64,000 nt of DNA from a phage. The stretch's first letter is position 1. The number at the start of each line of letters is the position of its first letter. The notes beneath the pieces were generated by a model. The model did no database searches, was not told where the DNA came from, and saw nothing but the letters and a program-made list of their open reading frames with translations. Below, in pieces: positions 1,734-61,650 of this stretch. The stretch lies in NCBI GenBank assembly GCA_024672275.1, contig GCA_024672275.1_4536.1. One strand, given 5' to 3'. A program made the translations under genes and the position numbers.

Positions 1734-1754
1734 AAAACAAAAAAGGGTAACACA

Positions 1755-2117: not shown

Positions 2118-2123
2118 AAACGG

Positions 2124-2183: not shown

Positions 2184-2205
2184 AACAATGAAAAAGGTTA
2201 TCATC

Positions 2206-2571: not shown

Positions 2572-2577
2572 AAAGCA

Positions 2578-2637: not shown

Positions 2638-2660
2638 TCACTGAAAAAGAGAGAAAAATC

Positions 2661-2900
2661 ATGGCTAAATCTAAAATGTACAACGGTCACAAAAACAAAA
2701 CTCATTGGAATGTAAGCCTTTGGATTAATAACGATGAATCGTTATACCGGTTGGCCCAAGATTTTATTAACGCTAATGCTAATCGTAATGATGCGGCGCG
2801 GGATATGATGCTTTTTCTGGAACAAACTGGACAAGATAAAACGCCAGACGGTTTCAAATATAGCACTACTGCGATCCGTGCCGCGATGGTTGGAATGTAA
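2661..2900 (+). CDS. hypothetical protein (79 aa)
   Basis: ATG 2661 after cassette and AGAGAG RBS; ORF track. Confidence 0.6.
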   Translation: MAKSKMYNGHKNKTHWNVSLWINNDESLYRLAQDFINANANRNDAARDMMLFLEQTGQDKTPDGFKYSTTAIRAAMVGM

Positions 2901-2909
2901 TAAAAACAG

Positions 2910-2969
2910 TTGACAACGTTTAAAATTAGTGTAAGATGTATCACATAGGGCGGGAAGTGGTTTCCCGCC
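2910..2969 (+). promoter_or_regulatory. sigma70-type promoter + GC hairpin cassette
   Basis: TTGACA 2910-2915, N16, TAAGAT 2932-2937, hairpin identical to 2162-2183 copy (GGCGGGAAGTGGTTTCCCGCC) 2948-2969. Confidence 0.7.
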
Positions 2970-2990
2970 AAAACAGAGAGATTAAAGATT

Positions 2991-3218
2991 ATGGCTATCA
3001 ATATTGTTCGCGTATCCGGCACCGTTGGCACTTCCCAGGTCATTGCAGTTGTAACAAACAAAAAGATTAATGATGTATGTGAAAGCTTGAATAAGTGGGC
3101 TATTGCTAATTTTGGGGAATATGCAAGCGTTGAGTACATCGAATCCTACCAGGTGCCAACCATCAGCCTAACCGATCTCAACGTTGATCGCCTGTTATGC
3201 CTGGATGAATTAATCTGA
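2991..3218 (+). CDS. hypothetical protein (75 aa)
   Basis: ATG 2991 after cassette; ORF track. Confidence 0.6.
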   Translation: MAINIVRVSGTVGTSQVIAVVTNKKINDVCESLNKWAIANFGEYASVEYIESYQVPTISLTDLNVDRLLCLDELI

Positions 3219-3227
3219 AAAAGATTG

Positions 3228-3285
3228 TTGACACCGGAAAGAAAAAGAGTAAACTGTATTACGTAGGGCGGCAATAGTGCCGCTC
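3228..3285 (+). promoter_or_regulatory. sigma70-type promoter + GC hairpin cassette
   Basis: TTGACA 3228-3233, N16, TAAACT 3250-3255, hairpin GGCGGCAATAGTGCCGC (1 mismatch to 20-mer) 3266-3285. Confidence 0.7.
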
Positions 3286-3308
3286 ACAACAGAAGAGAGA
3301 TTATCACG

Positions 3309-3524
3309 ATGGCTAATATCCGTACACTGTTAAAAAATGCAAGTCAAGTTTTATTTTCAGATGACGAGTATTTCAATAAAGACATTACAGGCGTAAAAAA
3401 TCTTAAAGATGTAAAGGATGTGATAGGTATTCGCGGATCTTTACGTAAAGGTGACTACTACGGCAATAAAGTACAATATAAATTAAATCAGTCTTATGAT
3501 TTTACTTTGACAATTATTTCATAA
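3309..3524 (+). CDS. hypothetical protein (71 aa)
   Basis: ATG 3309 after cassette; ORF track. Confidence 0.6.
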   Translation: MANIRTLLKNASQVLFSDDEYFNKDITGVKNLKDVKDVIGIRGSLRKGDYYGNKVQYKLNQSYDFTLTIIS

Positions 3525-3530
3525 AACCGC

Positions 3531-3592
3531 TTGCAATCTTAATAAAATAAAGTAAACTGTATTACATCAAGGCGGCGGAATGGTCCACCGCC
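3531..3592 (+). promoter_or_regulatory. sigma70-type promoter + GC hairpin cassette
   Basis: TTGCAA 3531-3536, N16, TAAACT 3553-3558, hairpin GGCGGCGGAA-TGG-TCCACCGCC 3571-3592. Confidence 0.6.
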
Positions 3593-3616
3593 TAACAAAG
3601 AGAAGAGGAAAATATC

Positions 3617-3784
3617 ATGATCACTTTCGCTACCCGTGAAGCCGCTCGCAACGTTGCACGTAAAGTTAACGCCGCCAACCTGGGTGCTACTTTTAAAGCC
3701 CCGGTGAAAGATGAATCAGGAAAATGGATCTTCCCTGGTCTGCGTCATGCTGACAAGTTAGGTACTTTAAGCCTTAAAAAATAA
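3617..3784 (+). CDS. hypothetical small protein (55 aa)
   Basis: ATG 3617 after cassette, RBS AGAGGAAAA; below ORF-track size cutoff. Confidence 0.5.
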   Translation: MITFATREAARNVARKVNAANLGATFKAPVKDESGKWIFPGLRHADKLGTLSLKK

Positions 3785-5342: not shown

Positions 5343-5627
5343 ATGAGTAAAGCTAACACCGTGCTAATGTTTTCCCTGATTAATGATCCCGCTTACTTGT
5401 CCAACATGACGCAGGACGGTAACACATTAACGGCAACATTCACCAATAAGCTTGACCGGGTGATCATCGTCTCACTGAAAACAGTTAGTAAAGGCTTTTA
5501 CTCGTTAGCTTATCATTGGATCACCGATACCGATGAGACAAGCCAGGACTATAGCGCCCCTTTCCCTGAATCAATGGCACGGGAGATCATCGCCGCCGTT
5601 GTAAATGATGGTTTGTTTACTGCATAA
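5343..5627 (+). CDS. hypothetical protein (94 aa)
   Basis: Internal ATG 5343 with RBS GAGGAT; track start 5313 lies inside the promoter hairpin. Confidence 0.55.
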   Translation: MSKANTVLMFSLINDPAYLSNMTQDGNTLTATFTNKLDRVIIVSLKTVSKGFYSLAYHWITDTDETSQDYSAPFPESMAREIIAAVVNDGLFTA

Positions 5628-5644
5628 AATAATTTAGAAAAAGG

Positions 5645-5701
5645 CTTGCAATCATTTTGAGATAGTGTATATTTAATTCATAGGGCGGCGGGAATAGTTC
5701 C
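5645..5701 (+). promoter_or_regulatory. sigma70-type promoter + GC hairpin cassette
   Basis: TTGCAA 5645-5650, N16, TATATT 5667-5672, hairpin GGGAA-TAG-TTCCC within GGGCGGCGGGAATAGTTCCC 5682-5701. Confidence 0.55.
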
Positions 5702-5725
5702 CAAAGCAAACGAGAGGATTACACG

Positions 5726-5845
5726 ATGAGCAAGTACACAGTAGAATACACGGTAGAAAATCCGGCAGTATCCGAAGGTAAAAAGATGACATTTGCCATC
5801 AGTATAATCGCTTTCGTTGTCACTATCTTATCAATCATCTTATAA
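5726..5845 (+). CDS. small hydrophobic peptide (39 aa)
   Basis: ATG 5726 with RBS GAGAGGA; C-terminal TM helix; below ORF-track cutoff. Confidence 0.45.
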   Translation: MSKYTVEYTVENPAVSEGKKMTFAISIIAFVVTILSIIL

Positions 5846-5855
5846 GGTACATACC

Positions 5856-6017
5856 ATGAAAACAGCAGACATTATCAAAGAGATCGCCCTTGCCGCTGGT
5901 GTTGAAGTCGAGGAAGTGATCGCGCTCAATCTTACAGAAAACGATCTGCGCAACTATGAAGCGGAAAGCGTGAAAGCAAGCGGCGCGGTCCTGGTATATG
6001 ATCCGGCTAACAAGTAA
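5856..6017 (+). CDS. hypothetical small protein (53 aa)
   Basis: Internal ATG 5856 of track ORF 5817..6017; follows stop of previous peptide. Confidence 0.45.
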   Translation: MKTADIIKEIALAAGVEVEEVIALNLTENDLRNYEAESVKASGAVLVYDPANK

Positions 6018-6026
6018 GGGGATAAC

Positions 6027-6137
6027 ATGAATCCGAAAGATATGCAAGCATGGAAAGGGTACGACGATCTAAGCGCCTTGCGCAATAAGTCAAGCCGTAA
6101 CTTTAGACGGTTGGAAGCAAAGAAAAAGAAAAAATAG
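6027..6137 (+). CDS. hypothetical small basic protein (36 aa)
   Basis: ATG 6027 with RBS AAGGGG; ends TAG immediately before next promoter. Confidence 0.4.
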   Translation: MNPKDMQAWKGYDDLSALRNKSSRNFRRLEAKKKKK

Positions 6138-6138
6138 T

Positions 6139-6196
6139 TTGACAAGTCCGCCTAGTCTGATAATATATATCTTGTAGGGCGGCAATGGTGCCGCTC
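6139..6196 (+). promoter_or_regulatory. sigma70-type promoter + GC hairpin cassette
   Basis: TTGACA 6139-6144, N16, TGn-TAATAT 6161-6166, exact 20-mer hairpin 6177-6196. Confidence 0.7.
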
Positions 6197-6215
6197 ACAA
6201 GAAGAGAGAAAAATT

Positions 6216-6500
6216 ATGAAAATCACAAAAAGCCTAACTAATTATGCAGCACGTCGCGGATTATGTTTAACCGTTGAAAACTTAGGGAAAGAAGACTTTT
6301 TGTGTTTTTGGGAGCTTGAAAACGATTGCGAGTGGATGTTTTCCTATTCTATCTGCGAAGATCAAAACGGTTGTTTGTTAACCTGGCGCGGTAATATCTA
6401 TTTACCGGAAGAAATTAAAGAAGAGTTACCAGGTACGATCATGACAGAGAGACAGCTTAAGGAAGTGATCAATTTTGTAGGGCAAAACATTAAAAAATAA
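6216..6500 (+). CDS. hypothetical protein (94 aa)
   Basis: ATG 6216 after cassette; ORF track. Confidence 0.6.
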   Translation: MKITKSLTNYAARRGLCLTVENLGKEDFLCFWELENDCEWMFSYSICEDQNGCLLTWRGNIYLPEEIKEELPGTIMTERQLKEVINFVGQNIKK

Positions 6501-6501
6501 T

Positions 6502-6564
6502 TTGACAGTAGGCAAACAACGTAGTAAAGTTTATTACATAGAGCGGCGGAATGGTCCACCGCTC
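6502..6564 (+). promoter_or_regulatory. sigma70-type promoter + GC hairpin cassette
   Basis: TTGACA 6502-6507, N17, TAAAGT 6525-6530, hairpin GAGCGGCGGAA-TGG-TCCACCGCTC 6541-6564. Confidence 0.65.
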
Positions 6565-6585
6565 ACAACAGAAGAGAAACAAATC

Positions 6586-6756
6586 ATGATCCCGACTATG
6601 TTTTATGTATCGCGCAAAGGTCACAATATTTTTTGGTCTGAAGATTTAAATGAAGCTATGACGTTTGCCCGTGATCGTGTTGCTATCGGTGGCGTTAACA
6701 TCACCGTAACCGATGAAAATGGCATTGAATACTATAACGGCGACGATGAAGAATAA
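6586..6756 (+). CDS. hypothetical small protein (56 aa)
   Basis: Internal ATG 6586 downstream of hairpin and AGAAGAGA RBS; track start 6502 is the TTG inside the -35 box. Confidence 0.55.
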   Translation: MIPTMFYVSRKGHNIFWSEDLNEAMTFARDRVAIGGVNITVTDENGIEYYNGDDEE

Positions 6757-6763
6757 TTAATGA

Positions 6764-6784
6764 GGCGGGGGAGTATTCCCCGCC
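6764..6784 (+). promoter_or_regulatory. GC hairpin of cassette type without recognisable promoter
   Basis: Hairpin GGCGGGGGAG-TAT-TCCCCGCC 20 nt upstream of ATG 6804; no -35/-10 found upstream. Confidence 0.45.
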
Positions 6785-6803
6785 GTCAATAAAGAGGTAA
6801 ATC

Positions 6804-7073
6804 ATGAAAATATCATTGGACGTTGCAATCAAGGCCATCGAGTCCGGTTACATCCTGGTAAAAGATGATAAGGCTAAAATAGTGCATCATGTTAACAAGG
6901 AAACAGGCGAAAGCATGATCACATATAAAGCCGCCTACTTTCTCCAATCAGTAGCAGATCCGCGCGTACAACGCCAGGTTACGGCGACTATTGCTAAAAA
7001 ATTATGTGCTTTACAGGGTGCAAGTTTTAACGAGATCGCCCCGTGTTTTGAGTGGTCAAGCTTGAAAAAATAA
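6804..7073 (+). CDS. hypothetical protein (89 aa)
   Basis: ATG 6804 with RBS AAAGAGG; ORF track. Confidence 0.6.
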   Translation: MKISLDVAIKAIESGYILVKDDKAKIVHHVNKETGESMITYKAAYFLQSVADPRVQRQVTATIAKKLCALQGASFNEIAPCFEWSSLKK

Positions 7074-7074
7074 T

Positions 7075-7136
7075 TTGACAACAATTATAAATCGGGTAGA
7101 ATGTATTTCGTAGGGCGGGGCAATAAGGCAACGCCC
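7075..7136 (+). promoter_or_regulatory. sigma70-type promoter + GC hairpin cassette
   Basis: TTGACA 7075-7080, N16, TAGAAT 7097-7102, hairpin GGGCG..CGCCC 7113-7136. Confidence 0.6.
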
Positions 7137-7154
7137 ATTAATGAGGGTAGAATC

Positions 7155-7259
7155 ATGTTAGAGAAAATTTTCACGGTTGTAATAGTGGGCCTGGCGTTAT
7201 CGGTTGGAGTGGTTGCAACTATGGCTAATATGATCCTATCTTCCCACGGTATCGGTTAA
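7155..7259 (+). CDS. small hydrophobic peptide (34 aa)
   Basis: ATG 7155 with RBS GAGGG; predicted TM helix. Confidence 0.45.
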   Translation: MLEKIFTVVIVGLALSVGVVATMANMILSSHGIG

Positions 7260-7269
7260 GGTGAAACAA

Positions 7270-7431
7270 ATGATCACGAACAAAACAGGCAAAACGGAAT
7301 TTTTACGCGGCTTACAAGTTGGTAAGCCTGAGATCTGGCATTGCACGAAGTCCGCGCATAATGAAATGAAAGATTTTACCGCTACTTTACAACGTGTTAA
7401 AATATCTATCACACAGAAAAAGCCTTGTTAG
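7270..7431 (+). CDS. hypothetical small protein (53 aa)
   Basis: ATG 7270 with RBS AAGGTG; below ORF-track cutoff. Confidence 0.4.
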   Translation: MITNKTGKTEFLRGLQVGKPEIWHCTKSAHNEMKDFTATLQRVKISITQKKPC

Positions 7432-7480
7432 TAGTAGAAAACGAGATCCCGCAAACTATTATTATTGTCGAGCGTACAGC

Positions 7481-7867
7481 ATGAAAACAGAAATCATTAT
7501 TGAAATCATCAACGGCTATAAAGAAGCCTTTATTTTTGCTGAATCAGCAAGGGATCATGAAGGTAATTTTATTGATAACTTAGACGATTATGATTTTTCT
7601 CCTAGCGCGGACGAACGGATCGCCCAGGATGTAACAGCCTTTATTAATGCTAATCTTGCCGCTATCTCTGAGGCAATGAGCGACGGCGCAACAGCCAACC
7701 AGATCGGGAATGATTTACATTTTACCCGTAACGGTCACGGCGTAGGCTTTTGGGATCGCCCTGAGATATACACCACTAACACGGCGAACCGCCTAACCAA
7801 TGCAGCTAAGTTTATGCCGAACGTGTCGGCTTACATTGGTGAAGATAATTTGATTTATATTGAATAA
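7481..7867 (+). CDS. hypothetical protein (128 aa)
   Basis: Internal ATG 7481 of track ORF 7394..7867 (track start is GTG inside previous ORF); start uncertain, weak RBS. Confidence 0.5.
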   Translation: MKTEIIIEIINGYKEAFIFAESARDHEGNFIDNLDDYDFSPSADERIAQDVTAFINANLAAISEAMSDGATANQIGNDLHFTRNGHGVGFWDRPEIYTTNTANRLTNAAKFMPNVSAYIGEDNLIYIE

Positions 7868-7873
7868 AAAGTA

Positions 7874-7931
7874 TTGACACAGATCGCCAGTGTGCTAATA
7901 TTTACCACGTAGGGCGGCAATGGTGCCGCTC
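7874..7931 (+). promoter_or_regulatory. sigma70-type promoter + GC hairpin cassette
   Basis: TTGACA 7874-7879, N16, TGn-TAATAT 7896-7901, TTACCACGTAGGGCGG box, exact 20-mer hairpin 7912-7931. Confidence 0.7.
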
Positions 7932-7950
7932 ACTGTAAAAGGTAAACATT

Positions 7951-8142
7951 ATGAAAACTATCACCTATCTGGAATCGAATAACATGTTTTTTGCGCCCGT
8001 TGATGAAATCATCGAAGCATTAAACAACGAGGAAGGGATCAAAGGTTTATCTTATAGCCAACTTTTAGGAATGGTTGCAGCAAATGTAGAGCTTGCTTAC
8101 TATGTTGAAAATTTTGATGAAGCTGTAATCTTTACAAAATAA
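7951..8142 (+). CDS. hypothetical protein (63 aa)
   Basis: ATG 7951 after cassette; ORF track. Confidence 0.6.
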   Translation: MKTITYLESNNMFFAPVDEIIEALNNEEGIKGLSYSQLLGMVAANVELAYYVENFDEAVIFTK

Positions 8143-29287: not shown

Positions 29288-29320
29288 AGAAAAGGCACCC
29301 ACTTGGGTGCCTTTGTTTTA
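29288..29320. terminator. bidirectional rho-independent terminator at convergence point
   Basis: Hairpin GGCACCC-ACTT-GGGTGCC flanked by A-run upstream and T-run downstream; + strand block ends, - strand block begins. Confidence 0.65.
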
Positions 29321-29605: not shown

Positions 29606-29628
29606 AGAAAGGGGCCGAAGCCCCTTGA
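29606..29628 (-). terminator. UUCG-tetraloop hairpin terminator (family copy 1)
   Basis: AAGGGGC-TTCG-GCCCCTT on - strand followed by UUUCUUAUU and the next RBS; identical hairpin at about 41715 and 46005. Confidence 0.6.
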
Positions 29629-29633
29629 GTGGT

Positions 29634-30449
29634 TTATTTGTTTAAGTGGTCTTCGACCATTTTAATGAAACCTTCATTGCTGAAGGCTGTTGCAGCTTTT
29701 TCTCGGTAAACAAAAACTCCACGATCTTCATAGAGAAGTGTTTCTTCGTAATTAACTCCAGGGTTAACTACAACCATTTTTGTACCCATACTAAGTGCAG
29801 GAAATAATTCCCAATTAAAATTGATAACTTGGTTTGAACATCCTACTACTACAACCAAATCTTGCATGGTCAAAGTATCGAACAAGTGAGCCATATCTGC
29901 ATACAAAGGTGCAGCCTCACCAAAAAATACAACATTAGGCTTCACCCAGTTATAATCATCTATGTTTATACTATTGTAACCAATATCTACCAGTGTTTTG
30001 TAATCTCCAGGATGCATACGGTAAACTACTTCAGGAAGATATCCGTGTACGTGAATAACAGAATCTCTGTCTACACCTGCTCGCTCTAGTAGATCATCAA
30101 CGTTTGTTGTCAAGTTTACTATTTGGTTAGGATATTCCTTAAACCACTTTGCTATTTGAATATGTGCAGCATTAGGTTGTACATCTTTAAGCTCAACACG
30201 TCTTTTGTTATAAAATTCGTGTGTTTTGGCATACAAATCCATACCGTTCTCGTCTACACCACCGACCACTGGAAGATCTGGAGATGTTCTAACACGATAA
30301 CCTGCCTGGAAAGCTCCAATATCGCAGACCTCTTCTAAATCATATTCTTCCCATAAGGCACGACCACTATCGGTGTCTGTTCGGAATGTTCTAATCCCAC
30401 TATCTGCACTTAAACCTGCACCGCTTACAAAAATCACTCGTCTTGGCAT
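29634..30449 (-). CDS. Sir2-family NAD-dependent deacylase/ADP-ribosyltransferase-like protein (271 aa)
   Basis: Sirtuin motifs GAGLSADSGIRTFR, TTNVDDL, HVHG, VFFGE, LVVVGCS; no Cys4 zinc ribbon; RBS GAGGAGG. Confidence 0.6.
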   Translation of the reverse strand: MPRRVIFVSGAGLSADSGIRTFRTDTDSGRALWEEYDLEEVCDIGAFQAGYRVRTSPDLPVVGGVDENGMDLYAKTHEFYNKRRVELKDVQPNAAHIQIAKWFKEYPNQIVNLTTNVDDLLERAGVDRDSVIHVHGYLPEVVYRMHPGDYKTLVDIGYNSINIDDYNWVKPNVVFFGEAAPLYADMAHLFDTLTMQDLVVVVGCSNQVINFNWELFPALSMGTKMVVVNPGVNYEETLLYEDRGVFVYREKAATAFSNEGFIKMVEDHLNK

Positions 30450-30925
30450 TCTTCCTCCTCATAATCATCATAATCTTCGTCATCCAAATCGTACACTTCG
30501 TCTTGAGAATAACTCACTTCAAAGTAAATATCAAACTCCGCAAACAAACGTAGAATGTTGGACATGCTATAATAATTATCGTAGGCAGATTCAGCTTCAT
30601 AGTAAACATAAAGCAAATGGTTAGCCTTATCATCTTCCAAATATTTCCCGTCTGCATACGCATAGTCTGCATATGCTTTACCTGCATCTTCCACAAGAGA
30701 ACGATCAAGCAGAGTAGGAAATGGTTTCTCTTTTTCTTTTAGTTTGCTCACCAACCAGTGTGCAATATTATGCCAATCTGCATCCTCTCCGCTGAAGCAG
30801 CTTGCGACTTCGCCAAACTTGGCATCTCCTAAGTCCCCGCTGATAGTGATCATGGTTGAACTATTGTAACCACAAGTTTCGCAATTTGAACAACTGTTGT
30901 GCACATGAATTTCTACTTGAAACAT
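30434..30925 (-). CDS. hypothetical protein with N-terminal Cys cluster and acidic C-terminus (163 aa)
   Basis: Internal ATG 30925 with RBS GGGAGG; CSNCETCG motif. Confidence 0.5.
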   Translation of the reverse strand: MFQVEIHVHNSCSNCETCGYNSSTMITISGDLGDAKFGEVASCFSGEDADWHNIAHWLVSKLKEKEKPFPTLLDRSLVEDAGKAYADYAYADGKYLEDDKANHLLYVYYEAESAYDNYYSMSNILRLFAEFDIYFEVSYSQDEVYDLDDEDYDDYEEEECQDE

Positions 30926-30942
30926 ATTTCCTCCCATAAAAG

Positions 30943-30970
30943 AAAAGCCCCCTGAAACAGGAGGCTTTGT
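30943..30970 (-). terminator. putative rho-independent terminator
   Basis: - strand hairpin AGCCUCCUG..CAGGGGGCU followed by UUUCUUUU. Confidence 0.45.
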
Positions 30971-30983
30971 TCAGATGCTGGCA

Positions 30984-31637
30984 CTATACCAGACTTTGTA
31001 GGTATTTGTCAAGGGCTTCTTGATCGCCTTGACAAACATAGCAACGGAAGTCTTGAGCCGAAGGTTGTTTATTTTCATCCCAGTCCCAATAAACATTACC
31101 CTTATAACGTGAACCAGGAAACTCAAAAGAGGCTGTATGTGTAATGTATCCTGGGCCACCAGTGAAATCACAGAATGAGAATTGGGGGTATGCCGCCTTT
31201 ACTGCCTCAATAAACCAAGCTTTACGATCTAAGGCTTCATTGATGCTATATGCATGTCTCTCCATTTCTTCCCAAGTTTTCCAGACACTTCTCTCATCAG
31301 GAGAAAAGACAAGCCATTCTGGAAGGTAGAGAGTGTCATAGTAATCATCATATTCGATCTCGGAGGCGCACGAAGCTGACTCCTCCAGTTTTGAGTAATC
31401 AAAAGCAGAATATACCCACCAACCATCTTCCAGTAAGGCTTTGATAGGGACGAAGCCTTTATCAGCATATTGATCGAAGTGTTTGACACGGTGGCTTGTG
31501 CAGTCTTCAAACTCACATTCTAAACGATATGCACCTTTTCGACGAGCCTCAAGACCGTGTGTACTGAAAATAACAACACTTCCTTCACCATCATTACGAT
31601 CTACTTGATAAGCAACTACTGGTTTTGAATTTGACAT
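30984..31637 (-). CDS. hypothetical protein (217 aa)
   Basis: RBS AAGGAG + ATG at 31637; ORF track. Confidence 0.6.
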   Translation of the reverse strand: MSNSKPVVAYQVDRNDGEGSVVIFSTHGLEARRKGAYRLECEFEDCTSHRVKHFDQYADKGFVPIKALLEDGWWVYSAFDYSKLEESASCASEIEYDDYYDTLYLPEWLVFSPDERSVWKTWEEMERHAYSINEALDRKAWFIEAVKAAYPQFSFCDFTGGPGYITHTASFEFPGSRYKGNVYWDWDENKQPSAQDFRCYVCQGDQEALDKYLQSLV

Positions 31638-32709: not shown

Positions 32710-33651
32710 TTAATAACCTCCTTCAAAAGGCTTTACTACATGTTGATTAGCTTTAAAACGTTCAACATAATCGTTTTCGCCCATGTTTTCATATAGCTTA
32801 GTAACAACATAAAAGTTTTCCCAAGCATATTCCCTAAACCAACCACTAGTGATGGATGTGCAGACTTTAGATAAAGCCATTATAAAACTTTGCTTAGGGG
32901 TTGGACCTCCGATCTCTCCACCGAAAGGAATTTGTGAACGTTCCAAAGCCAAAACACACGCTTCTTCATAAACACCTAACAGGCGCACATGTTTTGGTTG
33001 AGCAAAAAACTTTTCTTTGCTGGTCATAACTTCACTTCCATCTTTCATATAAGATTTATATGCCGGAGCATCCATTACCGCGATTGCTTCATGGATAGAA
33101 TCATGATCATAAACATACGGAACCTCATCACCTTTAAAAAAGTCTTTACTTTTTACGTTTAAGTTCGGATGAGAGTAAGTGTATGTTTCTTTCTCACGCA
33201 ACTCATAAATACTCTTAAGATTTTCTGGGATCTTTGCGCCCAGTGACCGCATGAAATGAATATCTTTCATAGTTTTAAAGAAGTGAGGACTATCCTTTTT
33301 AAAACGATGACTCATTTTAAGAAGGTAGAGCACATCTAAAGGAGCAACAACATGTCCAGCGTAAGTTCGACGAACATCATCAGAATCTTCACAATAACTA
33401 ATCAAAGCTTCTGTGCTATCTCCTTGAGAAGCAATATCGTATTCCAAATGTGCACCAGCTATCATTTTGACATGGCCTTTGTTTCCTTTACGTTCTACAA
33501 GTTCAACAAACTCATCTTGAGAGAACATTTTTGATAATTCTTCCCACTCTTGTTCTGTACACAGGTAATCTAAATCTACACAAGGGCGATACAAGTCTTT
33601 TCCCATGTCCATAGCATGAATTTGCAATGCACGGCTACCAATTAACACCAT
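32710..33651 (-). CDS. hypothetical protein (313 aa), weak nucleotidyltransferase-like N-terminus
   Basis: RBS AGAGGAG + ATG; N-terminal GS...(19)...DLD pattern reminiscent of Pol-beta-type NTases (weak). Confidence 0.55.
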   Translation of the reverse strand: MVLIGSRALQIHAMDMGKDLYRPCVDLDYLCTEQEWEELSKMFSQDEFVELVERKGNKGHVKMIAGAHLEYDIASQGDSTEALISYCEDSDDVRRTYAGHVVAPLDVLYLLKMSHRFKKDSPHFFKTMKDIHFMRSLGAKIPENLKSIYELREKETYTYSHPNLNVKSKDFFKGDEVPYVYDHDSIHEAIAVMDAPAYKSYMKDGSEVMTSKEKFFAQPKHVRLLGVYEEACVLALERSQIPFGGEIGGPTPKQSFIMALSKVCTSITSGWFREYAWENFYVVTKLYENMGENDYVERFKANQHVVKPFEGGY

Positions 33652-42396: not shown

Positions 42397-42657
42397 TTAC
42401 TCCGCAATTTGAGCCATGAGATCACGCAGTTCGGTAAAACCGCCTACGTATGTTACCTCCCCGTTCACTTCAGACAGAATTTGTGGAAATGTGCGTGGAG
42501 GAACTCCGGTAAGATCAACAACTGTTTTAGTCATTGATTCTAAATCATAGTCTTGATCAAGACTTAAATATTCAAACTGTTTATTGCGCATGGTTAATAG
42601 TTGTTTTGACATTTCGCAAAATTGACAGTTAGGTTTACCAAAAATTACAAATTCCAT
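42397..42657 (-). CDS. glutaredoxin-like redoxin (NrdH/Grx-type), 86 aa
   Basis: Active-site CQFC in thioredoxin-fold context FGKPNCQFCE; location beside nrdAB. Confidence 0.7.
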   Translation of the reverse strand: MEFVIFGKPNCQFCEMSKQLLTMRNKQFEYLSLDQDYDLESMTKTVVDLTGVPPRTFPQILSEVNGEVTYVGGFTELRDLMAQIAE

Positions 42658-43499
42658 TACCTCTCCTTATTAAGTAATACTGCTAAAGACTGTTCAATAC
42701 CTTTATTTAAATCTGATTTTGTAAGATAGTGACTGGTTACTAATTGTGACTTCACCGGACGTGCTGCTGGAGCATTATAGGTTGAAGCTGATACCGCCGA
42801 TATCTTAACAGGTTCTGGCATCTGTGTCAAGATCTTTTCCGCAAACTCCGCCCAAGAAATAAAATGGCTTCCTGCAAAATGGTAAGTCTTAACAGACCTT
42901 GACCAACCTGTTTTTAATACTTCAAAAATAGCTTCTGCTAAATCTGGAGCATATGTTGGACAAGAGAACTGATCAGCAACAATAATAAAATCACGTTGTC
43001 CATCGTTATAGCGAGACAACATCGTTTTTAGAAAGTTATTTCCAAATTCACTATATACCGAGGCTGTTCGAATAATATATGCATTTGGGTTAACTCCTCG
43101 CACCATTTTTTCACCAAGTTCTTTCGTATACCCATAATTGTTTATTGGGTTAGGTGTAGTATCTTCAAAAATAGGATGAGAATAATTAAAAATATAGTCT
43201 GTAGAAATATGCACAAAATCAATTTTAAGTTTGCTGCACACTGCCGCAATATTCGCAGGTCCATAAGCATTAACAGCCAAAGCAGTAGCAAAATCATGTT
43301 CTGCTTTATCTACAGCCGTATAAGCGGCGCAATTAATAACACCATCTACATAATCTTCAATAATAGCGTTTCGCACAGCTTCAAAATTTGTAATATCTAC
43401 ACGTTCTTTAGGATAAATTAAAGATACATTTGAAGGAGCCACTTTACGTAAAGCTTGTCCCAGTTGTCCATTACCACCCAATACCAGATATGTTAGCAT
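42657..43499 (-). CDS. rmlD: dTDP-4-dehydrorhamnose reductase RmlD (280 aa)
   Basis: N-terminal Rossmann LVLGGNGQLG, YTAVDKAE, STDY..Y.K...E catalytic region; overlaps rmlC stop. Confidence 0.85.
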   Translation of the reverse strand: MLTYLVLGGNGQLGQALRKVAPSNVSLIYPKERVDITNFEAVRNAIIEDYVDGVINCAAYTAVDKAEHDFATALAVNAYGPANIAAVCSKLKIDFVHISTDYIFNYSHPIFEDTTPNPINNYGYTKELGEKMVRGVNPNAYIIRTASVYSEFGNNFLKTMLSRYNDGQRDFIIVADQFSCPTYAPDLAEAIFEVLKTGWSRSVKTYHFAGSHFISWAEFAEKILTQMPEPVKISAVSASTYNAPAARPVKSQLVTSHYLTKSDLNKGIEQSLAVLLNKER

Positions 43500-44059
43500 A
43501 CACCCTCACTACGCAACTGTTGAAAAGATTTAGCCATTGCATCTTTTGTTGATAAGATAGGTTTAAAACCTTCGTCAAAAATCATATCGAAGCCCCAATC
43601 GATCCCTATGTCAGGATCATCCCAACGTAAACTTTGTTCGCTAGAAGGGTCGTATGGAGTTGTGCATTTGTATTCAAAGATAGCGTCCATACTCAAAACT
43701 ATAAAACCATGTGCCAAACCAGGGGGAAGCCAAAACTGCGTATGGTGTCGTGCACGAAGAACAACACCGTCCCAAGCACCGTAAGTTGGACTATCTTTAC
43801 GTAAATCTACAGCGAAATCCAATACTTCTCCACTTACACAACGAACAAGCTTACCTTGCGGGTTATTTGTTTGAAAGTGCATTCCTCGCAAAACACCGAA
43901 GTTTGATTTAGACATATTGTCTTGAACGAAAGTTTGTTTACCAATGATATCTTCGTATTTTTGTTCATTGTATGTTTCTAAAAAGAAACCACGATCATCT
44001 TTATAAACGTCTGGTTTGATAATTACCGCACCTTCAATTTTTGTTTTTTCTACTTTCAT
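43493..44059 (-). CDS. rmlC: dTDP-4-dehydrorhamnose 3,5-epimerase RmlC (188 aa)
   Basis: Cupin signature DDRGFFLETYN, VQDN.SKS..GVLRG.HFQ, GKLVRCV.GEV.D.AVD.RK.SPT.G, DP.IGIDW. Confidence 0.9.
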   Translation of the reverse strand: MKVEKTKIEGAVIIKPDVYKDDRGFFLETYNEQKYEDIIGKQTFVQDNMSKSNFGVLRGMHFQTNNPQGKLVRCVSGEVLDFAVDLRKDSPTYGAWDGVVLRARHHTQFWLPPGLAHGFIVLSMDAIFEYKCTTPYDPSSEQSLRWDDPDIGIDWGFDMIFDEGFKPILSTKDAMAKSFQQLRSEGVC

Positions 44060-44068
44060 TTTCTCTCC

Positions 44069-44395
44069 TTACCAGACATGTTGAGAAATAATAGTTTCCG
44101 TTTTAATGTTATATTTTTCAAGTAGCTCTACATAGGCTTCTTTTGCATTCTCATTTACTTGCTCAAGATCTACAGCTACGCTTCCTTCTCCGCCTTCTAA
44201 ATAAATACCATATATGCAATAAGACTCATCAGCATCGTAGAAAGGAGAGATGCGACTTAAGTCAAGACCTTCTTGTAAGAACCAGTTAAAATCTCCATCA
44301 AATTCTTCTTCAATTCTAGGATCTTCTCCTACAACCTCTTCCCACTTATTAAAAGGTGCACCCTGTAACATACGCCATTCGATATCAATACCCAT
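44069..44395 (-). CDS. hypothetical acidic protein (108 aa)
   Basis: RBS AGGAGGAG + ATG; ORF track. Confidence 0.55.
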   Translation of the reverse strand: MGIDIEWRMLQGAPFNKWEEVVGEDPRIEEEFDGDFNWFLQEGLDLSRISPFYDADESYCIYGIYLEGGEGSVAVDLEQVNENAKEAYVELLEKYNIKTETIISQHVW

Positions 44396-44549
44396 TTTTC
44401 ATCTCCTCCTCTTCTTGAGCAGCTTTAATAATTGCTTCATAAATATCGTAAGCAATGCCTCCACAACATCTAGCTTCGAAAGCTATTGCTTCTGCAATAT
44501 GATCTGTTAATTCTCGTGGAATTCGGACATACTCTTTTTCACTCTCCAT
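44385..44549 (-). CDS. hypothetical small protein (54 aa)
   Basis: RBS GGAGGTAGAAG + ATG 44549; overlaps both neighbours; below ORF-track cutoff. Confidence 0.45.
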   Translation of the reverse strand: MESEKEYVRIPRELTDHIAEAIAFEARCCGGIAYDIYEAIIKAAQEEEEMKNGY

Positions 44550-44691
44550 CTTCTACCTCCAACCCTTCTTTTTCAAAGACTACTACTCGTCCTTCACCAT
44601 GACAATTCAGGCAAGGAAATGTTACCATAATTTCCACTTCCATCTGTCCAGTCCCACCACACACAGGACAAAAAATAAGTTTTTCAGCCAT
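44539..44691 (-). CDS. zinc-ribbon small protein (50 aa)
   Basis: RBS AAGGAGGAATA + ATG 44691 (TAATG overlap); CPVCGG ... CLNCHG. Confidence 0.45.
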   Translation of the reverse strand: MAEKLIFCPVCGGTGQMEVEIMVTFPCLNCHGEGRVVVFEKEGLEVEDGE

Positions 44692-44900
44692 TATTCCTCC
44701 TTAATTATTTCAAACTTGGCAACACCATTTACAATAATATGACCACAAGACATAACTCCTAGCCAAGGATCGCCGTTTTTCTTCAGGCGTTTACCGAATA
44801 CATCACAAAAACCATTCTTCATTTCGGAGGCTTCATAAGAAGCCCCTTTGTCAAAAACGTCTTTGAATGTGTCGATTATACCAACACATCTCAAAATCAT
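44691..44900 (-). CDS. hypothetical protein (69 aa)
   Basis: ATG overlapping nrdB stop (TAATG); ORF track. Confidence 0.5.
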   Translation of the reverse strand: MILRCVGIIDTFKDVFDKGASYEASEMKNGFCDVFGKRLKKNGDPWLGVMSCGHIIVNGVAKFEIIKEE

Positions 44901-55479: not shown

Positions 55480-56205
55480 TTACTTGTTAATAATACCTGC
55501 GATATTAGGTTTAATGAAACCTGACCACTTCATGATCTTACCTTTATCATCAAAGAACACATACACTTTCTGTTTTTCATTATAAACAGCATGGACACCA
55601 GTGTATGCCCCTTCTGGACGATTGGCATTTCGTTCTTCAATTGCAGCGCATTCTTGTGCAATGGCTGAATCGATATCTGAAGTTTTCCAAGTTTTCAGCA
55701 ACTGTTGTTTAGTTGGATACTTGGAATCATTACTTTTCAATACCTCTTTAATAACTTTCTTTTCTGGATATTTTGAACGGATCAGAGTGTCACGAGACAT
55801 ACGCATAATACCCGCAGCCATTAGCGCCATTTGAACTGGCTCTGTAAATGTTTGTTCCAAAGCATCGAAATCGGTATACACAGTTGGAGTAAAAACATCG
55901 CCTACAGCATAGTCCAAGAAATTCAGCGTATGTTCTTCACCAAAGAACATGTAAGTAAGATAACTGGATACTACAAAAATATCCGCTGCTGCATCCAAGA
56001 GTTCTACATGATCGTTTACTTTCGCGGCTGTTTCATACTCTTTAAGCTCTTCACGAACGAACCCGATTTGGGACATAAATAACTCTTGAGTGAATTCAGG
56101 TTGTTCACCACCTCGTGCTTTGGCATTCCAATCAATTACGTGCTTTGCTGCATTTTTGAAAAATTCAGTATCGAATTTAATATCTTTAAAAAAATTCTCG
56201 ATCAT
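55480..56205 (-). CDS. MazG-like all-alpha NTP pyrophosphohydrolase-like protein (241 aa)
   Basis: EE..E...A......VELLDAAADI pattern typical of MazG/HisE fold (weak); RBS TAAGGAGAAA. Confidence 0.35.
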   Translation of the reverse strand: MIENFFKDIKFDTEFFKNAAKHVIDWNAKARGGEQPEFTQELFMSQIGFVREELKEYETAAKVNDHVELLDAAADIFVVSSYLTYMFFGEEHTLNFLDYAVGDVFTPTVYTDFDALEQTFTEPVQMALMAAGIMRMSRDTLIRSKYPEKKVIKEVLKSNDSKYPTKQQLLKTWKTSDIDSAIAQECAAIEERNANRPEGAYTGVHAVYNEKQKVYVFFDDKGKIMKWSGFIKPNIAGIINK

Positions 56206-58899: not shown

Positions 58900-59304
58900 T
58901 TATTGAAGTTTAAGTGAACCACGAAGACGTTTCTCTTGCTGATCACGGATATATTGTGGAACCTCGTGAATTGAATCATTACCGTGCCTATTTTCAACAA
59001 CTAAAGAGATAACTTGATAACCAAATTCTTCAGCAAGAGCTAGATAAGGTTTAAGTTCTTTCTCTGTGGTTGAAGTATTAGAAACAATAATCTTGTTAAG
59101 ATTAGATGCCATAGCATCACGAACAATACCCTGACACCATGCGTGTGCTTTACCTACATTTTCTGGCTTCCAATCGTAAACACCACTCTCTGTGTAATGA
59201 TATTGATCTGCCTCACAGATAGGCCAATAACCTTCAGAAATAATTTCTGCTACTGTAGATTTACCAGCACCTGAAACACCACGTAAAATGATAAGTTGTT
59301 TCAT
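58900..59304 (-). CDS. P-loop polynucleotide kinase-like protein (134 aa)
   Basis: Walker A GVSGAGKST at N-terminus as in T4 Pnk kinase domain; directly follows RNA ligase gene. Confidence 0.55.
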   Translation of the reverse strand: MKQLIILRGVSGAGKSTVAEIISEGYWPICEADQYHYTESGVYDWKPENVGKAHAWCQGIVRDAMASNLNKIIVSNTSTTEKELKPYLALAEEFGYQVISLVVENRHGNDSIHEVPQYIRDQQEKRLRGSLKLQ

Positions 59305-60237
59305 TTATCCTCCAAAAAAGTTTTCGATTTTTTCACGTCGCTCTTGCTGATTTAAAGCAGCCCATTGAATCTTCGTAAAATTATTTCGAATCCATTCTAA
59401 CAAAGCGTAATATTCTTCGTCAACCATTTGTTTGGCATTTTTTGGATTATCCCAAATCAGATCCCACTTTTTATCTCCACCGCGCATAAGAAACTTCTTA
59501 GTAAGATAGTGTGGTGATTTAATTTTTAAAAGTAAGTTGAACGGATAGTTTGTTTCACGAACTACAAACCCTTCGTGTTTACAATGTTTAGACATTTCAA
59601 CAACATCTGAAAACTTAACCATTGGATGAACTTCAGGACGCTTAAATTTGGTGACAGAAGCAATTCCATCAAGAGCACCTTCAGGTAACATAAAACTTGT
59701 CCCATCAGGATTTTGAATTCTGGCACCAATTAAGTATGCACCTGGTTCTTCTTCGACAATATGCGGATCAGAAGGATCACAGATTTCAAACAGGAAAGTT
59801 GCTTTTGCACTCTCTGCCCATTTGATGAAATGTTCTATGTCATCGCACTCTGAAACAATATGATTCTTTGCAATACTTGCAAAATCTGATTCAAGGCTTC
59901 CTGTTGTCGATACAATAAGTTGACCTTTATATACACCTACAGAGGCCATAAAACCATTTACTTTACGAACCACATCTACAAGTTCATCCGCTGGTAGATC
60001 TGTGCCATTCTCAAAACGATTAAAAATCTTAGTGAAAGGCCAAATAACAACATTGTCATCAGCATCAACAACGATTCCGCGACATTCTAGAAGACGAGAA
60101 TCAATGCTCCATAAGTTATCCCAGAAAACTTTGTTCTTATACTTAAGAACAGATAGGCCAGAATACTCTCCTTCTTTATATGTTTTCTTATGAACTAAAC
60201 CTTTTTCAACCAAATCGTCGCAATTAAATTTAGTCAC
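59305..60237 (-). CDS. RNA ligase, T4 Rnl1-like (310 aa)
   Basis: Colinear with T4 RnlA N-terminal half: LLECRGIVVDADDNVVIWPFTKIFN (cf. [29 protein letters not shown]), motif I KVNG, EGFVVRE, LLLKIK; GTG start with RBS AAAGGAGAG. Confidence 0.75.
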   Translation of the reverse strand: MTKFNCDDLVEKGLVHKKTYKEGEYSGLSVLKYKNKVFWDNLWSIDSRLLECRGIVVDADDNVVIWPFTKIFNRFENGTDLPADELVDVVRKVNGFMASVGVYKGQLIVSTTGSLESDFASIAKNHIVSECDDIEHFIKWAESAKATFLFEICDPSDPHIVEEEPGAYLIGARIQNPDGTSFMLPEGALDGIASVTKFKRPEVHPMVKFSDVVEMSKHCKHEGFVVRETNYPFNLLLKIKSPHYLTKKFLMRGGDKKWDLIWDNPKNAKQMVDEEYYALLEWIRNNFTKIQWAALNQQERREKIENFFGG

Positions 60238-60238
60238 A

Positions 60239-60790
60239 TTACTCTCCTTTGATTATTTTGTGATGGTCTACAGTCACGATATCTCGTTTACCCATCATAG
60301 AAATTATCTCATCAAAATGCAAGATTTTTCCGTGTGCATCCCAACCCACATCTAACATTTTACCATAAGCTTCATCAGGGAAAGATCCGTGGGAATGCCC
60401 GTGTAGCATGATTGATCCACGCCCTTGTTTATTCCAGGAGGCTATAGGGTAATGGCTTAAGACGAAGAACAGCTTCTGATATTTCACTTCGTCATAATAC
60501 ACCACTTCTCCATACTCTGCAAGCACTTCTCGGTGTTTGCTGTAATCATGGTTCCCAACACAGTAGGTGATATCTCCTTGGAGACGGGAAGCAATTTTAC
60601 GGGTATCTTCTTCAGTTCCGAAACAGAAGTCGCCCAAATGCCACATCTTAACACCAGGAGTAGTAGCACATTTGTTCCATGCTTCGATCAAGGCTTCTGT
60701 CATGTGGTCCATATCTTCCCACGGACGATATTCAGGAGCAAACTCTCGAATACGTTTATGCATAAAATGCAAATCGCTTGTAATAAACAT
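60239..60790 (-). CDS. calcineurin-like metallophosphoesterase, candidate polynucleotide 2',3'/3'-phosphatase (183 aa)
   Basis: MPE motifs SDLHFMH, HLGDF, GNHD, LHGHSHG; immediately upstream of RNA ligase and kinase. Confidence 0.6.
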   Translation of the reverse strand: MFITSDLHFMHKRIREFAPEYRPWEDMDHMTEALIEAWNKCATTPGVKMWHLGDFCFGTEEDTRKIASRLQGDITYCVGNHDYSKHREVLAEYGEVVYYDEVKYQKLFFVLSHYPIASWNKQGRGSIMLHGHSHGSFPDEAYGKMLDVGWDAHGKILHFDEIISMMGKRDIVTVDHHKIIKGE

Positions 60791-61146
60791 TAGTATAATC
60801 CCTCGCTAAATAATTCATGGTCGTGACCATTACGCTCATGGTCGATCTGGTCCGCATTTTCCGCGATGATGTAAGCATCCGCACGACTCCACCAATTGTA
60901 ATACTGATCGATAAAGCCTTGATTATCTGGTGTGCACAAAGTTTTGTTGATTACACCTGCTTCTTTCAACACGCTTAACTGTGCATATAGTACAGGATTT
61001 GCATGTCGAACACAAGGAATAATTAACTCTTCACCATTATTCAAAATATACTTATTCGCAGCACAGACGATAACACGTTGCGCATAATGACCCTCACCAA
61101 TCCAGGTAAGAGGTTGGTAACAAATGTTGTTTTCAATACCACTCAT
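60790..61146 (-). CDS. hypothetical protein (118 aa)
   Basis: RBS GAGGAGGATT + ATG; ORF track. Confidence 0.55.
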   Translation of the reverse strand: MSGIENNICYQPLTWIGEGHYAQRVIVCAANKYILNNGEELIIPCVRHANPVLYAQLSVLKEAGVINKTLCTPDNQGFIDQYYNWWSRADAYIIAENADQIDHERNGHDHELFSEGLY

Positions 61147-61296
61147 TGTTTCCTAATCCTCCTCTCTTAAGTTATCCTCGAAAAAACTAGTGTCTGGAAG
61201 TAAAAGATCATTACTTGTGTCGGGCCAATCCTCTTCTTCTCGGTAGATAAAGTAACCTTCGTCCTCTTCTTGTTCCGACCAAACCGAATGATGCAT
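61147..61296 (-). CDS. hypothetical acidic small protein (49 aa)
   Basis: RBS TAAGGAGAAAAC + ATG about 61296; fills gap between flanking genes; below ORF-track cutoff. Confidence 0.4.
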
Positions 61297-61305
61297 GTTT
61301 TCTCC

Positions 61306-61650
61306 TTAGTAGTGCACACGAATCATTTTAATACCATAACGCAGCATGGATTCTTTTGCAAGCATGAATTTATCCCCAGCGGCGGGATTAGAAGTATGCA
61401 CGAAAATGGTAGGTGAACCAAAGCAAGGTTTACCAAACGCCAGAAGTTCTTCCAGGTGCAGGAAAACATCATACCCATCTTGGTCTGACTCCATACCTAA
61501 ATCATTGTCAAAAGACCACTCGGTTACTCTTCGATACAGTTTAGCAGGATCATTGAGAAAGGTCATAGCTTCTTGTGACGTTTTAAACCAAATTGCGTCT
61601 TCCTGTCCATAGTCGGCTGGGTTCCGCATATCATCTATCCAAACTTTCAT
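61306..61650 (-). CDS. hypothetical protein (114 aa)
   Basis: RBS AAAGGAGG + ATG; ORF track. Confidence 0.55.
   Translation of the reverse strand: MKVWIDDMRNPADYGQEDAIWFKTSQEAMTFLNDPAKLYRRVTEWSFDNDLGMESDQDGYDVFLHLEELLAFGKPCFGSPTIFVHTSNPAAGDKFMLAKESMLRYGIKMIRVHY

Follow-up and report, generated by a model that had tools for sequence, protein, structure and literature searches.

A zinc-ligand-free sirtuin encoded by a Phapecoctavirus: conserved active site, recurrent RNA-repair context and tentative assignment as an NAD-dependent deacylase

A 64,000-nucleotide stretch of phage DNA (GenBank assembly GCA_024672275.1, contig GCA_024672275.1_4536.1), hereafter called the window, carries a gene for a Sir2-family protein without the cysteines that form the zinc site of canonical sirtuins. 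What would a phage use such a protein for? Does it act on proteins, on RNA ends or on the NAD pool, or is it no longer an enzyme at all? The initial annotation, made from the sequence alone, had suggested that the protein could modify host proteins or manipulate NAD pools to counter NAD-depleting defenses.

On the minus strand, the ORF listing has a single reading frame spanning exactly 29634..30449, which encodes 271 amino acids. All four sirtuin motifs quoted in the initial annotation are found in this protein (GAGLSADSGIRTFR at residue 10, TTNVDDL at residue 114, HG at residues 135-136 and VFFGE at residue 174). It contains two cysteines in total (Cys42 and Cys204), both located outside the zinc-module region of residues 137-170. 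The gene and its local signals are:

29634..30449, minus strand: sirtuin coding sequence, 271 amino acids, ATG start, CobB-like, phage subfamily PHROG 2162
30450..30460, minus strand: ribosome-binding site GAGGAGGAAGA, immediately before the sirtuin ATG, as read from the sequence
29609..29626, minus strand: terminator-like hairpin, G+C-rich and followed by a T-run, 8 nt past the sirtuin stop codon
30434..30937, minus strand: upstream ORF, assigned to PHROG 9509 (no known function), which runs 16 nt into the start of the sirtuin gene
30944..30968, minus strand: terminator-like hairpin upstream of the two genes; annotated as a terminator in Schickermooser

The PHROG 9509 ORF and the sirtuin gene form a two-gene unit with hairpins at both ends, and Schickermooser also carries an annotated terminator at the place matching the hairpin at 29609..29626. 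The PHROG 9509 ORF is kept beside the sirtuin gene in Phapecoctavirus-like loci. We considered this ORF as a zinc ribbon provided in trans, which is unsupported: it has only three conserved cysteines, and the ORF is confined to the Phapecoctavirus lineage. Searches of the immediate neighbors of the sirtuin gene against Pfam, PHROGs, NCBIfam and PADLOC returned only domains of unknown function. The sirtuin itself scores 80.5 bits with the Pfam SIR2 model PF02146 (cut-off 24, E=1.9e-22). Its pN/pS ratio is 0.09-0.10 relative to two metagenomic relatives of 97% identity, and a comparison with Schickermooser revealed seven synonymous and no non-synonymous differences. Based on the reading frame, the motifs, the cysteine count, the Pfam score and this substitution pattern, the sirtuin ORF is a real, intact gene under purifying selection.

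The 3.2 kb surrounding the gene are about 97% identical at the DNA level to many Phapecoctavirus genomes, which agrees with the gene having been called phage-encoded. By this sequence similarity, we assign the window to Phapecoctavirus, that is, to a phAPEC8-like E. coli myovirus of the Stephanstirmvirinae. Schickermooser gp056, annotated as "Sir2 (NAD-dependent deacetylase)", has exactly the same amino acid sequence (100% identity). By tblastn, a homolog was detected in 984 of 50,697 phage records, corresponding to about 2% of sequenced phages. Identities are 50-60% for T5-like phages (52% for T5 itself), 46% for rV5-like phages, 55-61% for Mydo-like phages infecting Klebsiella, Salmonella and Proteus, 36% for KVP40-like vibriophages and 30-39% for jumbo phages of about 350 kb. 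In the T5-like phage DT57C, a natural deletion takes most of sir2 together with T5.103-105. Because of this deletion, the sirtuin counts as a dispensable accessory gene in the laboratory.

The sirtuin is already known: the identical protein is present in GenBank, the family has its PHROG, the loss of zinc has been in the literature since 2016, and the clade, together with an RNA-repair hypothesis, since 2022. Skliros et al. (2016) modeled the Sir2/CobB protein of a KVP40-like phage on 1S5P, described zinc loss in the KVP40-like phage homologs, noted homologs in T5 and other phages, observed that transcription of the KVP40-like sirtuin gene peaks 20 min after infection, and suggested that the enzyme deacetylates host Acs (PMC5107563). 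Iyer et al. (2022) described the clade in rV5, Mydo, SP15 and Serratia BF phages and predicted from its gene neighborhoods a KptA-like removal of RNA 2'-phosphates (PMC9503650). There is also a report that CobB of the host restricts T4 and lambda (PMC4271551). A literature search found no published work on the enzymology or the genetics of a phage sirtuin. With the protein deposited and annotated and the family described, the present locus adds little beyond what is known. The remaining question is the biochemistry of the whole family, whose carriers include the model phage T5, and not that of this copy.

The assignment to the Sir2 family, as opposed to another Rossmann family, was borne out by sequence and by fold. 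PHROG 2162 matches residues 2-271, i.e. the full length (E=2.8e-104). The best solved relative by sequence is E. coli CobB (E 7.6e-19, and 2.8e-25 with the family profile), followed by Archaeoglobus Sir2-Af2 and then by Af1 and SIRT5. In a Foldseek search with an AlphaFold2 model computed from 42 relatives (mean pLDDT 90.3), CobB 1S5P was again the top match (E 4.9e-17, TM 0.84 on target), followed by Sir2-Af1 and then SIRT5, and the best 50 PDB matches listed are all sirtuins. The features of the Sir2/sirtuin superfamily (Pfam score, sirtuin fold, NAD motif and catalytic His) were thus all found.

All three NCBIfam CobB models, the equivalogs NF040867 and NF001755 and the subfamily model NF001753, gave scores below their cut-offs (106 vs. 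243, 86 vs. 320 and 85 vs. 318 bits), and the PADLOC defense-Sir2 models gave no match at E up to 0.01. Because the protein scores below the CobB cut-offs, has no PADLOC match and keeps the catalytic His, sequence and model place it as a divergent branch of the CobB (class III) lineage and as a single-domain sirtuin. That the scores lie far under the CobB cut-offs speaks against reading the protein as a deacylase. The defense Sir2 NADases (ThsA, DSR1/2, Sir2-HerA, SPARSA) share with it the Sir2 superfamily and the use of NAD, and defense-associated Sir2 forms also lack the zinc ribbon. They differ from the phage protein, which consists of a single domain of 271 amino acids without SLOG, HerA, pAgo or large C-terminal partners; no such domains were seen in the products of the neighboring genes either. 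A defense-type Sir2 NADase was rejected on these grounds, given the missing PADLOC match, the CobB-nearest fold and the lack of partner domains.

Residue equivalences were derived from a MAFFT alignment with CobB, and conservation was scored across 119 representatives from the database, all with 54% identity or more. On the point of active-site inspection raised in the initial annotation, both the catalytic His and the Asn align with those of CobB. CobB His147 corresponds to His135, and the Asn and Asp of the TQNID motif to Asn116 and Asp118. Phe60-Arg61 of CobB corresponds to Phe22-Arg23, the FGE loop to Phe176-Gly177-Glu178, Ser216 to Ser205, Asn240 to Asn229, and Tyr92/Arg95 to Tyr80/Arg83. 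Phe22, Arg23, Asn116, Asp118, His135, Phe176, Glu178, Ser205, Asn229, Tyr80 and Arg83 are kept in every one of the 119 representatives. Gly177 of the FGE loop is a Gly in 104 of them, and the GAG motif is found in 118, the remaining sequence being gapped; within the NAD motif, Gly10-Ala11-Gly12, Ser14 and Ser17 are invariant or nearly so. The corresponding positions in the window are:

30045..30047, minus strand: codon of the catalytic His135 (HG motif), aligned with CobB His147, conserved in 119/119 representatives
30201..30212, minus strand: codons of Tyr80 to Arg83 (FYNKRR), aligned with CobB Tyr92/Arg95, conserved in 119/119
29940..30041, minus strand: degenerate zinc module, residues 137-170, YLPEVVYRMHPGDYKTLVDIGYNSINIDDYNWVK, with three predicted strands and no Cys, aligned with the Cys-bearing segment of CobB

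This conserved catalytic set supports the view that the protein would be a catalytically competent, NAD-consuming enzyme using standard sirtuin chemistry. E. coli CobB (1S5P/6RXJ) shares with it the NAD motifs, the catalytic His, the Tyr/Arg pair and the FGE loop. It differs in overall sequence, with about 27% identity, and in having zinc cysteines and a basic N-terminal extension, both of which are absent from the phage protein. The class-III Tyr-x-x-Arg pair of CobB and SIRT5 recognizes acidic acyl groups, for which a small residue opens the acyl pocket. In the phage sirtuin, this pair (Tyr80/Arg83) is invariant and CobB Ala76 is replaced by Cys42, which is still a small residue, and binding of acidic acyl groups is predicted.

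The same residues bear on whether the protein could be a mono-ADP-ribosyltransferase. Its targets would be host or phage proteins or the ends of nucleic acids, and their modification would hijack or disarm a host function such as an anticodon nuclease. Some sirtuins, such as SirTM, do ADP-ribosylate (PMC4518038), ADP-ribosylation is common in phages (PMC9503650), and the NAD-binding residues and Asn116 are conserved. In the dedicated SirTMs, however, the catalytic His is replaced by Gln, and the gene shares its operon with genes for a macro-domain protein and GcvH-L (PMC4518038). His135 is invariant here, and neither a macro-domain gene nor a GcvH-like one turned up in the ORFs and annotated neighbors that were examined. 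As His135 is kept and no macro-domain partner was found, we rejected a SirTM-type enzyme, and we consider ADP-ribosyl transfer in general to be improbable.

Some positions around the active site distinguish the phage clade from CobB. The Gln of the TQNxD motif is replaced by Thr115, and this change is common to the clade together with CobB Ala76 to Cys42, Trp189 to Phe175 and His186 to Asn172. Thr115, Cys42, Phe175 and Asn172 show no variation among the 119 close representatives, while the distant nt-1 and jumbo-phage homologs deviate at some of these positions. The VYP segment that follows the GxS motif of CobB, and which is said to line the acyl-lysine tunnel (PMC5107563), reads VIN in the phage sirtuin clade. 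With the T5-, rV5- and Mydo-like proteins (46-61% identity) and with that of nt-1 (36%), our protein shares VC(N/D)I including Cys42, KPNVVFFGE, the catalytic His, the absence of zinc cysteines and the exchange of the TQNID Gln for a small residue (TTNVD here, TANVS in nt-1, TSNMD in EC.P1). The clade substitutions around the active site and the loss of the zinc ligands count against a deacylase.

The initial annotation had also stated that the zinc ribbon is missing, which holds true for the ligands only. The Cys4 site of canonical deacylase sirtuins (classes I-IV and U) is absent, with no Cys in residues 137-170. Among the 119 representatives, 86 have no Cys in this region and 33 have one, and zinc ligands are likewise absent from the T5, rV5-like, nt-1 and jumbo-phage homologs. 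The module of about 34 residues, which is Cys-bearing in CobB, is nevertheless predicted to form strands at 136-144, 152-155 and 168-173. Because these three strands are still predicted with a pLDDT of at least 90, the ligands rather than the fold appear to be missing: in the model, the protein has lost its zinc ligands and kept a small ribbon-like β-module. The lost ligands, together with the dispensability seen in the natural deletion of DT57C, would fit a catalytically dead remnant or a decoy that only binds its target. With all catalytic and NAD-binding residues invariant and a pN/pS of about 0.1, such a remnant is hardly credible.

Zinc-less sirtuins of this kind are found outside phages as well. 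When one genome was scanned for each prokaryotic species, the closest cellular homologs, at 37-42% identity, came mostly from loci titled Marinobacterium (18), with further single matches in Oceanospirillum, Haliea, a Paracoccus plasmid and a Bacilli MAG. Twelve cellular homologs, six of them from Marinobacterium, were aligned. The six Marinobacterium proteins and those of Oceanospirillum and Haliea have no zinc-module Cys and contain VCHI or VCNI as well as T[ST]NVDD; FKPNVVFFGE is shared between these homologs and the phage protein. The Paracoccus plasmid protein looks intermediate: Cys42 is present, but TQNID and the zinc cysteines are kept. Since chromosomal homologs carry the hallmarks of the clade, the zinc-less subfamily is not confined to phages and can be a stand-alone cellular sirtuin. 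The Marinobacterium homologs differ from the phage protein in being cellular and stand-alone, with varying housekeeping neighborhoods: in the two loci scanned, the neighbors encode a TonB receptor, a ferredoxin oxidoreductase, MoxR, AIM24, OmpA and DctP, and neither phage nor RNA-repair genes were found nearby.

Gene context was compared across 59 IMG/VR loci and six GenBank loci with a homolog, by tblastn with proteins of the window, EdH4, T5 and a jumbo phage and by Pfam. Two features of the window are relevant here:

58900..61650, minus strand: RNA end-healing/sealing cassette (Pfam) of an AAA_33 kinase, an Rnl1-type RNA ligase, a calcineurin-like phosphoesterase, a 118-amino-acid ORF and cREC
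55480-56205: MazG-like gene (Pfam)

The Mydo-like and rV5-like phages (13 loci) show the full order metallophosphoesterase, Rnl1, cREC, AAA_33 kinase, sirtuin and MazG-like gene, the last located 0.8-4 kb downstream of the sirtuin gene. All these genes lie on one strand in Mydo-like loci, whereas the kinase and phosphoesterase genes are inverted in rV5-like loci, and some of the 13 loci carry the set only in part. In 28 T5-like loci, a gene for a HAD_SAK_2 "Swiss-army-knife RNA repair" phosphatase (T5.105) follows about 0.7-1.2 kb downstream; three more T5-like loci have T5.106/107 only. In the jumbo phage fENko-Kae01, which is among the GenBank loci, the gene for a 2H (Acb1-like) phosphoesterase precedes the sirtuin gene, and an unknown ORF, Nudix and cREC follow it in this order, with Nampt and NMNAT-Nudix genes 3-5 kb upstream. 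Six other IMG/VR loci offer little or no informative context, two of them with a Nampt-like gene within about 5 kb. The association between sirtuin and RNA end-healing genes reported in 2022 is therefore real and recurrent, and we could confirm it in three other lineages.

The nine Phapecoctavirus-like loci, which represent the type of the window, have a different arrangement: DUF7275, a DNA methyltransferase, two unknown ORFs, the sirtuin and a 90-amino-acid ORF, with no RNA-repair genes found within 10 kb of the sirtuin gene. Of the RNA end-processing genes that mark the neighborhoods of the clade (Rnl1, cREC, kinase, 2H, HAD_SAK, Nudix, MazG), those of the cassette and a MazG-like gene are present in the window, none of them adjacent to the sirtuin gene. 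Unlike in other members of the clade, of which T5.102 is the T5 representative, the RNA-repair cassette lies 29 kb from the sirtuin gene, on the same strand. In the window, the association is one at the genome level and not a local one. By analogy to the gene set flanking the sirtuin in rV5-like and Mydo-like phages, we infer a link between the cassette and the sirtuin here as well. The immediate neighbors of the gene in this phage are uninformative, and this weighs against a deacylase reading.

The Nampt-like genes of some loci bear on the suggestion that the protein manipulates the NAD pool, as an NADase or as a counter-measure to NAD-depleting defenses. In jumbo and some Mydo-like phages, such a gene lies 1.5-8.5 kb from the sirtuin gene, the jumbo phage also carries an NMNAT-Nudix gene at 1.5-8.5 kb, and the nicotinamide released by the sirtuin could feed a Nampt/NMNAT salvage. 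Sirtuins, however, use up NAD and cannot replenish it, and the protein has no similarity to the Sir2 NADases of PADLOC. The known NAD-restoring routes of phages named in PMC13464706, NARP1, NARP2 and NARP3, consist of other enzymes, and no sirtuin is among those listed there. With the Nampt and NMNAT-Nudix proteins of the jumbo phage as queries, tblastn gave no homolog either in the window or in Schickermooser, the closest annotated relative, of which the first 139 kb were covered. Given the consumption of NAD by sirtuins, the lack of a salvage gene in these sequences, the missing PADLOC match and the deacylase-type sequence and predicted fold, the NAD-pool proposal of the initial annotation is not supported, and we regard it as very unlikely.

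The recurrent RNA-repair genes provide the basis for the main rival explanation, a KptA/Tpt1-like RNA 2'-phosphotransferase (Iyer et al. 2022). In this scheme, a cyclic-phosphate end is opened to a 2'-phosphate, Rnl1 ligates, and the sirtuin moves the phosphate to NAD+. A phosphate oxygen would attack C1'', the His-activated 2''-OH would free ADP-ribose 1'',2''-cyclic phosphate, and this product would be cleared by the cREC, 2H or Nudix neighbors. The neighborhoods point to RNA ends over proteins and have been read as KptA-like (PMC9503650), which is an argument against a deacylase. The linkage between sirtuin and RNA end processing occurs in three other lineages with partner families differing in each, and the window contains a full cassette on the strand of the sirtuin gene. 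Such two-step chemistry would parallel the sirtuin mechanism, so that His135 would still be needed, and the active-site changes of the clade together with the loss of zinc could mean a change of substrate.

Tpt1/KptA is an ADP-ribosyltransferase-related family with the catalytic tetrad Arg-His-Arg-Arg. It resembles the phage sirtuin only as a candidate functional analog, being NAD-dependent, acting in two steps via a C1'' adduct and being associated with RNA ligase. It belongs to a different protein family, and sequence and fold searches with the phage protein gave sirtuins and not KptA. The predicted fold is near that of CobB (TM 0.84 on target), with FGE loop and class-III pocket both kept; these features would suit a substrate that is long and thin, such as acyl-lysine, better than an RNA backbone. 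With a pI of 4.8 and a net charge of about -15, the protein is acidic, which does not point to general RNA binding. The calcineurin-like phosphoesterase could heal cyclic ends and leave no 2'-phosphate, as is known from Clostridium thermocellum Pnkp. In addition, 29 kb separate the sirtuin gene and the cassette in this phage, and the Marinobacterium homologs have no RNA-repair neighbors in the two loci scanned.

KptA homologs were found in 98 other phage records, mainly from 255-305 kb jumbo phages of Erwinia, Dickeya and Klebsiella and from Clostridioides phages. Phages carrying KptA and phages carrying the sirtuin do not overlap among the matches listed, which would be in line with the KptA-like reading, but this is not significant, with only about 2 shared records expected by chance. 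We rejected mutual exclusivity as uninformative. Altogether, we judge it less likely than not that the zinc-less phage sirtuins are the first RNA-acting sirtuins, i.e. non-homologous replacements of Tpt1/KptA that remove 2'-phosphates, or otherwise ADP-ribosylate or process RNA ends, as the last step of tRNA repair after attack by a host anticodon nuclease. If they do act on RNA, the loss of zinc ligands and the change from Gln to Thr would be marks of a substrate switch, sirtuin chemistry would extend to RNA, and phages would have a new enzyme for countering tRNA-cleaving defenses. The idea of an RNA-acting phage sirtuin has been published before, as a prediction (PMC9503650), and our literature search found no published test of it.

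Our preferred explanation, to which we give a probability of roughly 0.42, is an NAD-dependent enzyme of the deacylase type whose targets would be tied to the tRNA/RNA damage response. By descent, the protein would belong to the CobB/class-III lineage, in a subfamily that lost the four zinc cysteines and kept the small β-module. NAD+ would be bound by the Rossmann domain through GAGLS..SG..FR, Asn116/Asp118, Ser205 and Asn229. A substrate oxygen would then attack the ribose C1'' and expel nicotinamide, and the ribose 2''-OH, activated by His135, would resolve the adduct. The likeliest substrate would be an acyl-lysine of host or phage proteins, with short or acidic acyl groups favored because of the invariant class-III Tyr80/Arg83 pair. 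Acyl-lysine is favored because of the fold, the FGE loop, the class-III Tyr/Arg pocket and the retained His, and also because stand-alone cellular homologs exist and the protein is acidic. A general sirtuin role fits with the Marinobacterium homologs standing alone among housekeeping genes in the two loci scanned. Since orthologs lie inside RNA end-healing operons and a cassette is present elsewhere in the window, the protein targets are probably part of the RNA-damage response. The modification of host proteins suggested in the initial annotation may thus be plausible, and deacylase activity would mean that phages rewrite the acyl-proteome of their host.

A further difference within the family concerns a 21-amino-acid insertion at residues 51-71 of the sirtuin. 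A segment of this length is present in 75 of the 119 representatives, whereas it comprises five residues in the other 44.

The sirtuin gene lies on the minus strand, close to a boundary between gene blocks, and the window features to which we refer are as follows:

29291-29314, both strands: bidirectional terminator-like hairpin
30434-30937, minus strand: ORF upstream of the sirtuin gene, overlapping its start by 16 nt
30944-30968, minus strand: terminator-like hairpin directly downstream of the following promoter-like match
30983-31012, minus strand: near-consensus σ70-like promoter match (TTGACA, 18-nt spacer, TG-TATAGT; 11/12 matches)
32710-33651, minus strand: DUF7277+DUF7275 protein, 313 aa, PHROG 2141
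42657-44897: rmlD-like and rmlC genes
55480-56205, minus strand: MazG-like pyrophosphohydrolase, located beyond the cassette that follows
58900-61650, minus strand: RNA end-healing/sealing cassette, complete gene set

The converging plus-strand and minus-strand gene blocks meet at the bidirectional hairpin, and the GC skew changes sign at the same place, near 29-30 kb. The ORF that overlaps the sirtuin start occurs only in the Phapecoctavirus lineage; no known domain was found in it, and it keeps a DCETCG...ASC pattern with three conserved cysteines and ends in a very acidic tail (DDEDYDDYEEEECQDE). A transcript initiated at the candidate promoter further upstream would carry the hairpin 30944-30968 at its very start. 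The promoter-like match may be fortuitous, or promoter and hairpin may form a regulated 5′ leader.

The RNA end-healing cassette comprises genes for an AAA_33 polynucleotide-kinase-like protein, an Rnl1-type RNA ligase, a calcineurin-like phosphoesterase, a 118-aa ORF and a cREC domain protein; the AAA_33 kinase lacks a fused Pnkp-type phosphatase domain. The DUF7277+DUF7275 protein may be one more RNA/tRNA-directed enzyme. It contains a GS...DxD motif, and its confident structural model (pLDDT 91.3) has a nucleotidyltransferase fold, for which the tRNA-modifying toxin MenT1 was the top PDB match (8an4, E 3.5e-4); CCA-adding enzyme and ANT(2′′) ranked next. Six of the nine Phapecoctavirus-like loci have the corresponding gene 2.9-3.5 kb upstream of the sirtuin gene, and it also precedes the sirtuin gene in vibriophage nt-1.

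In Schickermooser, the closest annotated relative, rmlA and rmlB come next after the rmlD-like and rmlC genes. Neither gave a blastn match in the window, where the gap between rmlC and nrdB measures only 838 bp compared with 2.7 kb in Schickermooser. The window phage therefore seems to encode half of the dTDP-rhamnose pathway. A protein with a DUF1768 domain is also annotated in the Schickermooser record, at 136123-136665; this position falls at the window's far edge or beyond it. DUF1768 is the ADP-ribose-processing domain NADAR, and the phage lineage would thus possess a second NAD/ADP-ribose-related gene.

In jumbo phage fENko-Kae01 (locus positions 553-3735 and 5510-7998), the sirtuin gene has an Acb1-like 2H phosphoesterase gene on one flank and a Nudix and a cREC gene on the opposite flank, and genes for Nampt and NMNAT-Nudix are found 3-5 kb upstream, thus placing an NAD consumer and an NAD salvage route in a common neighborhood. 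In phage DT57C (NC_027356.1, 46493-46765), a natural deletion has joined a sir2 remnant straight to T5.106. Most of the sirtuin gene is lost, as are T5.103, T5.104 and T5.105, the last of which encodes the HAD_SAK phosphatase; the phage is viable.

Most of the cellular loci (L073-L094) carry a chromosomal homologue and are titled Marinobacterium, with Oceanospirillum and Haliea also represented. Those homologues that were aligned are zinc-less sirtuins with the hallmarks of the phage clade. A Paracoccus plasmid homologue (L091) still keeps the zinc cysteines and TQNID and, judged by its sequence, looks like an intermediate.
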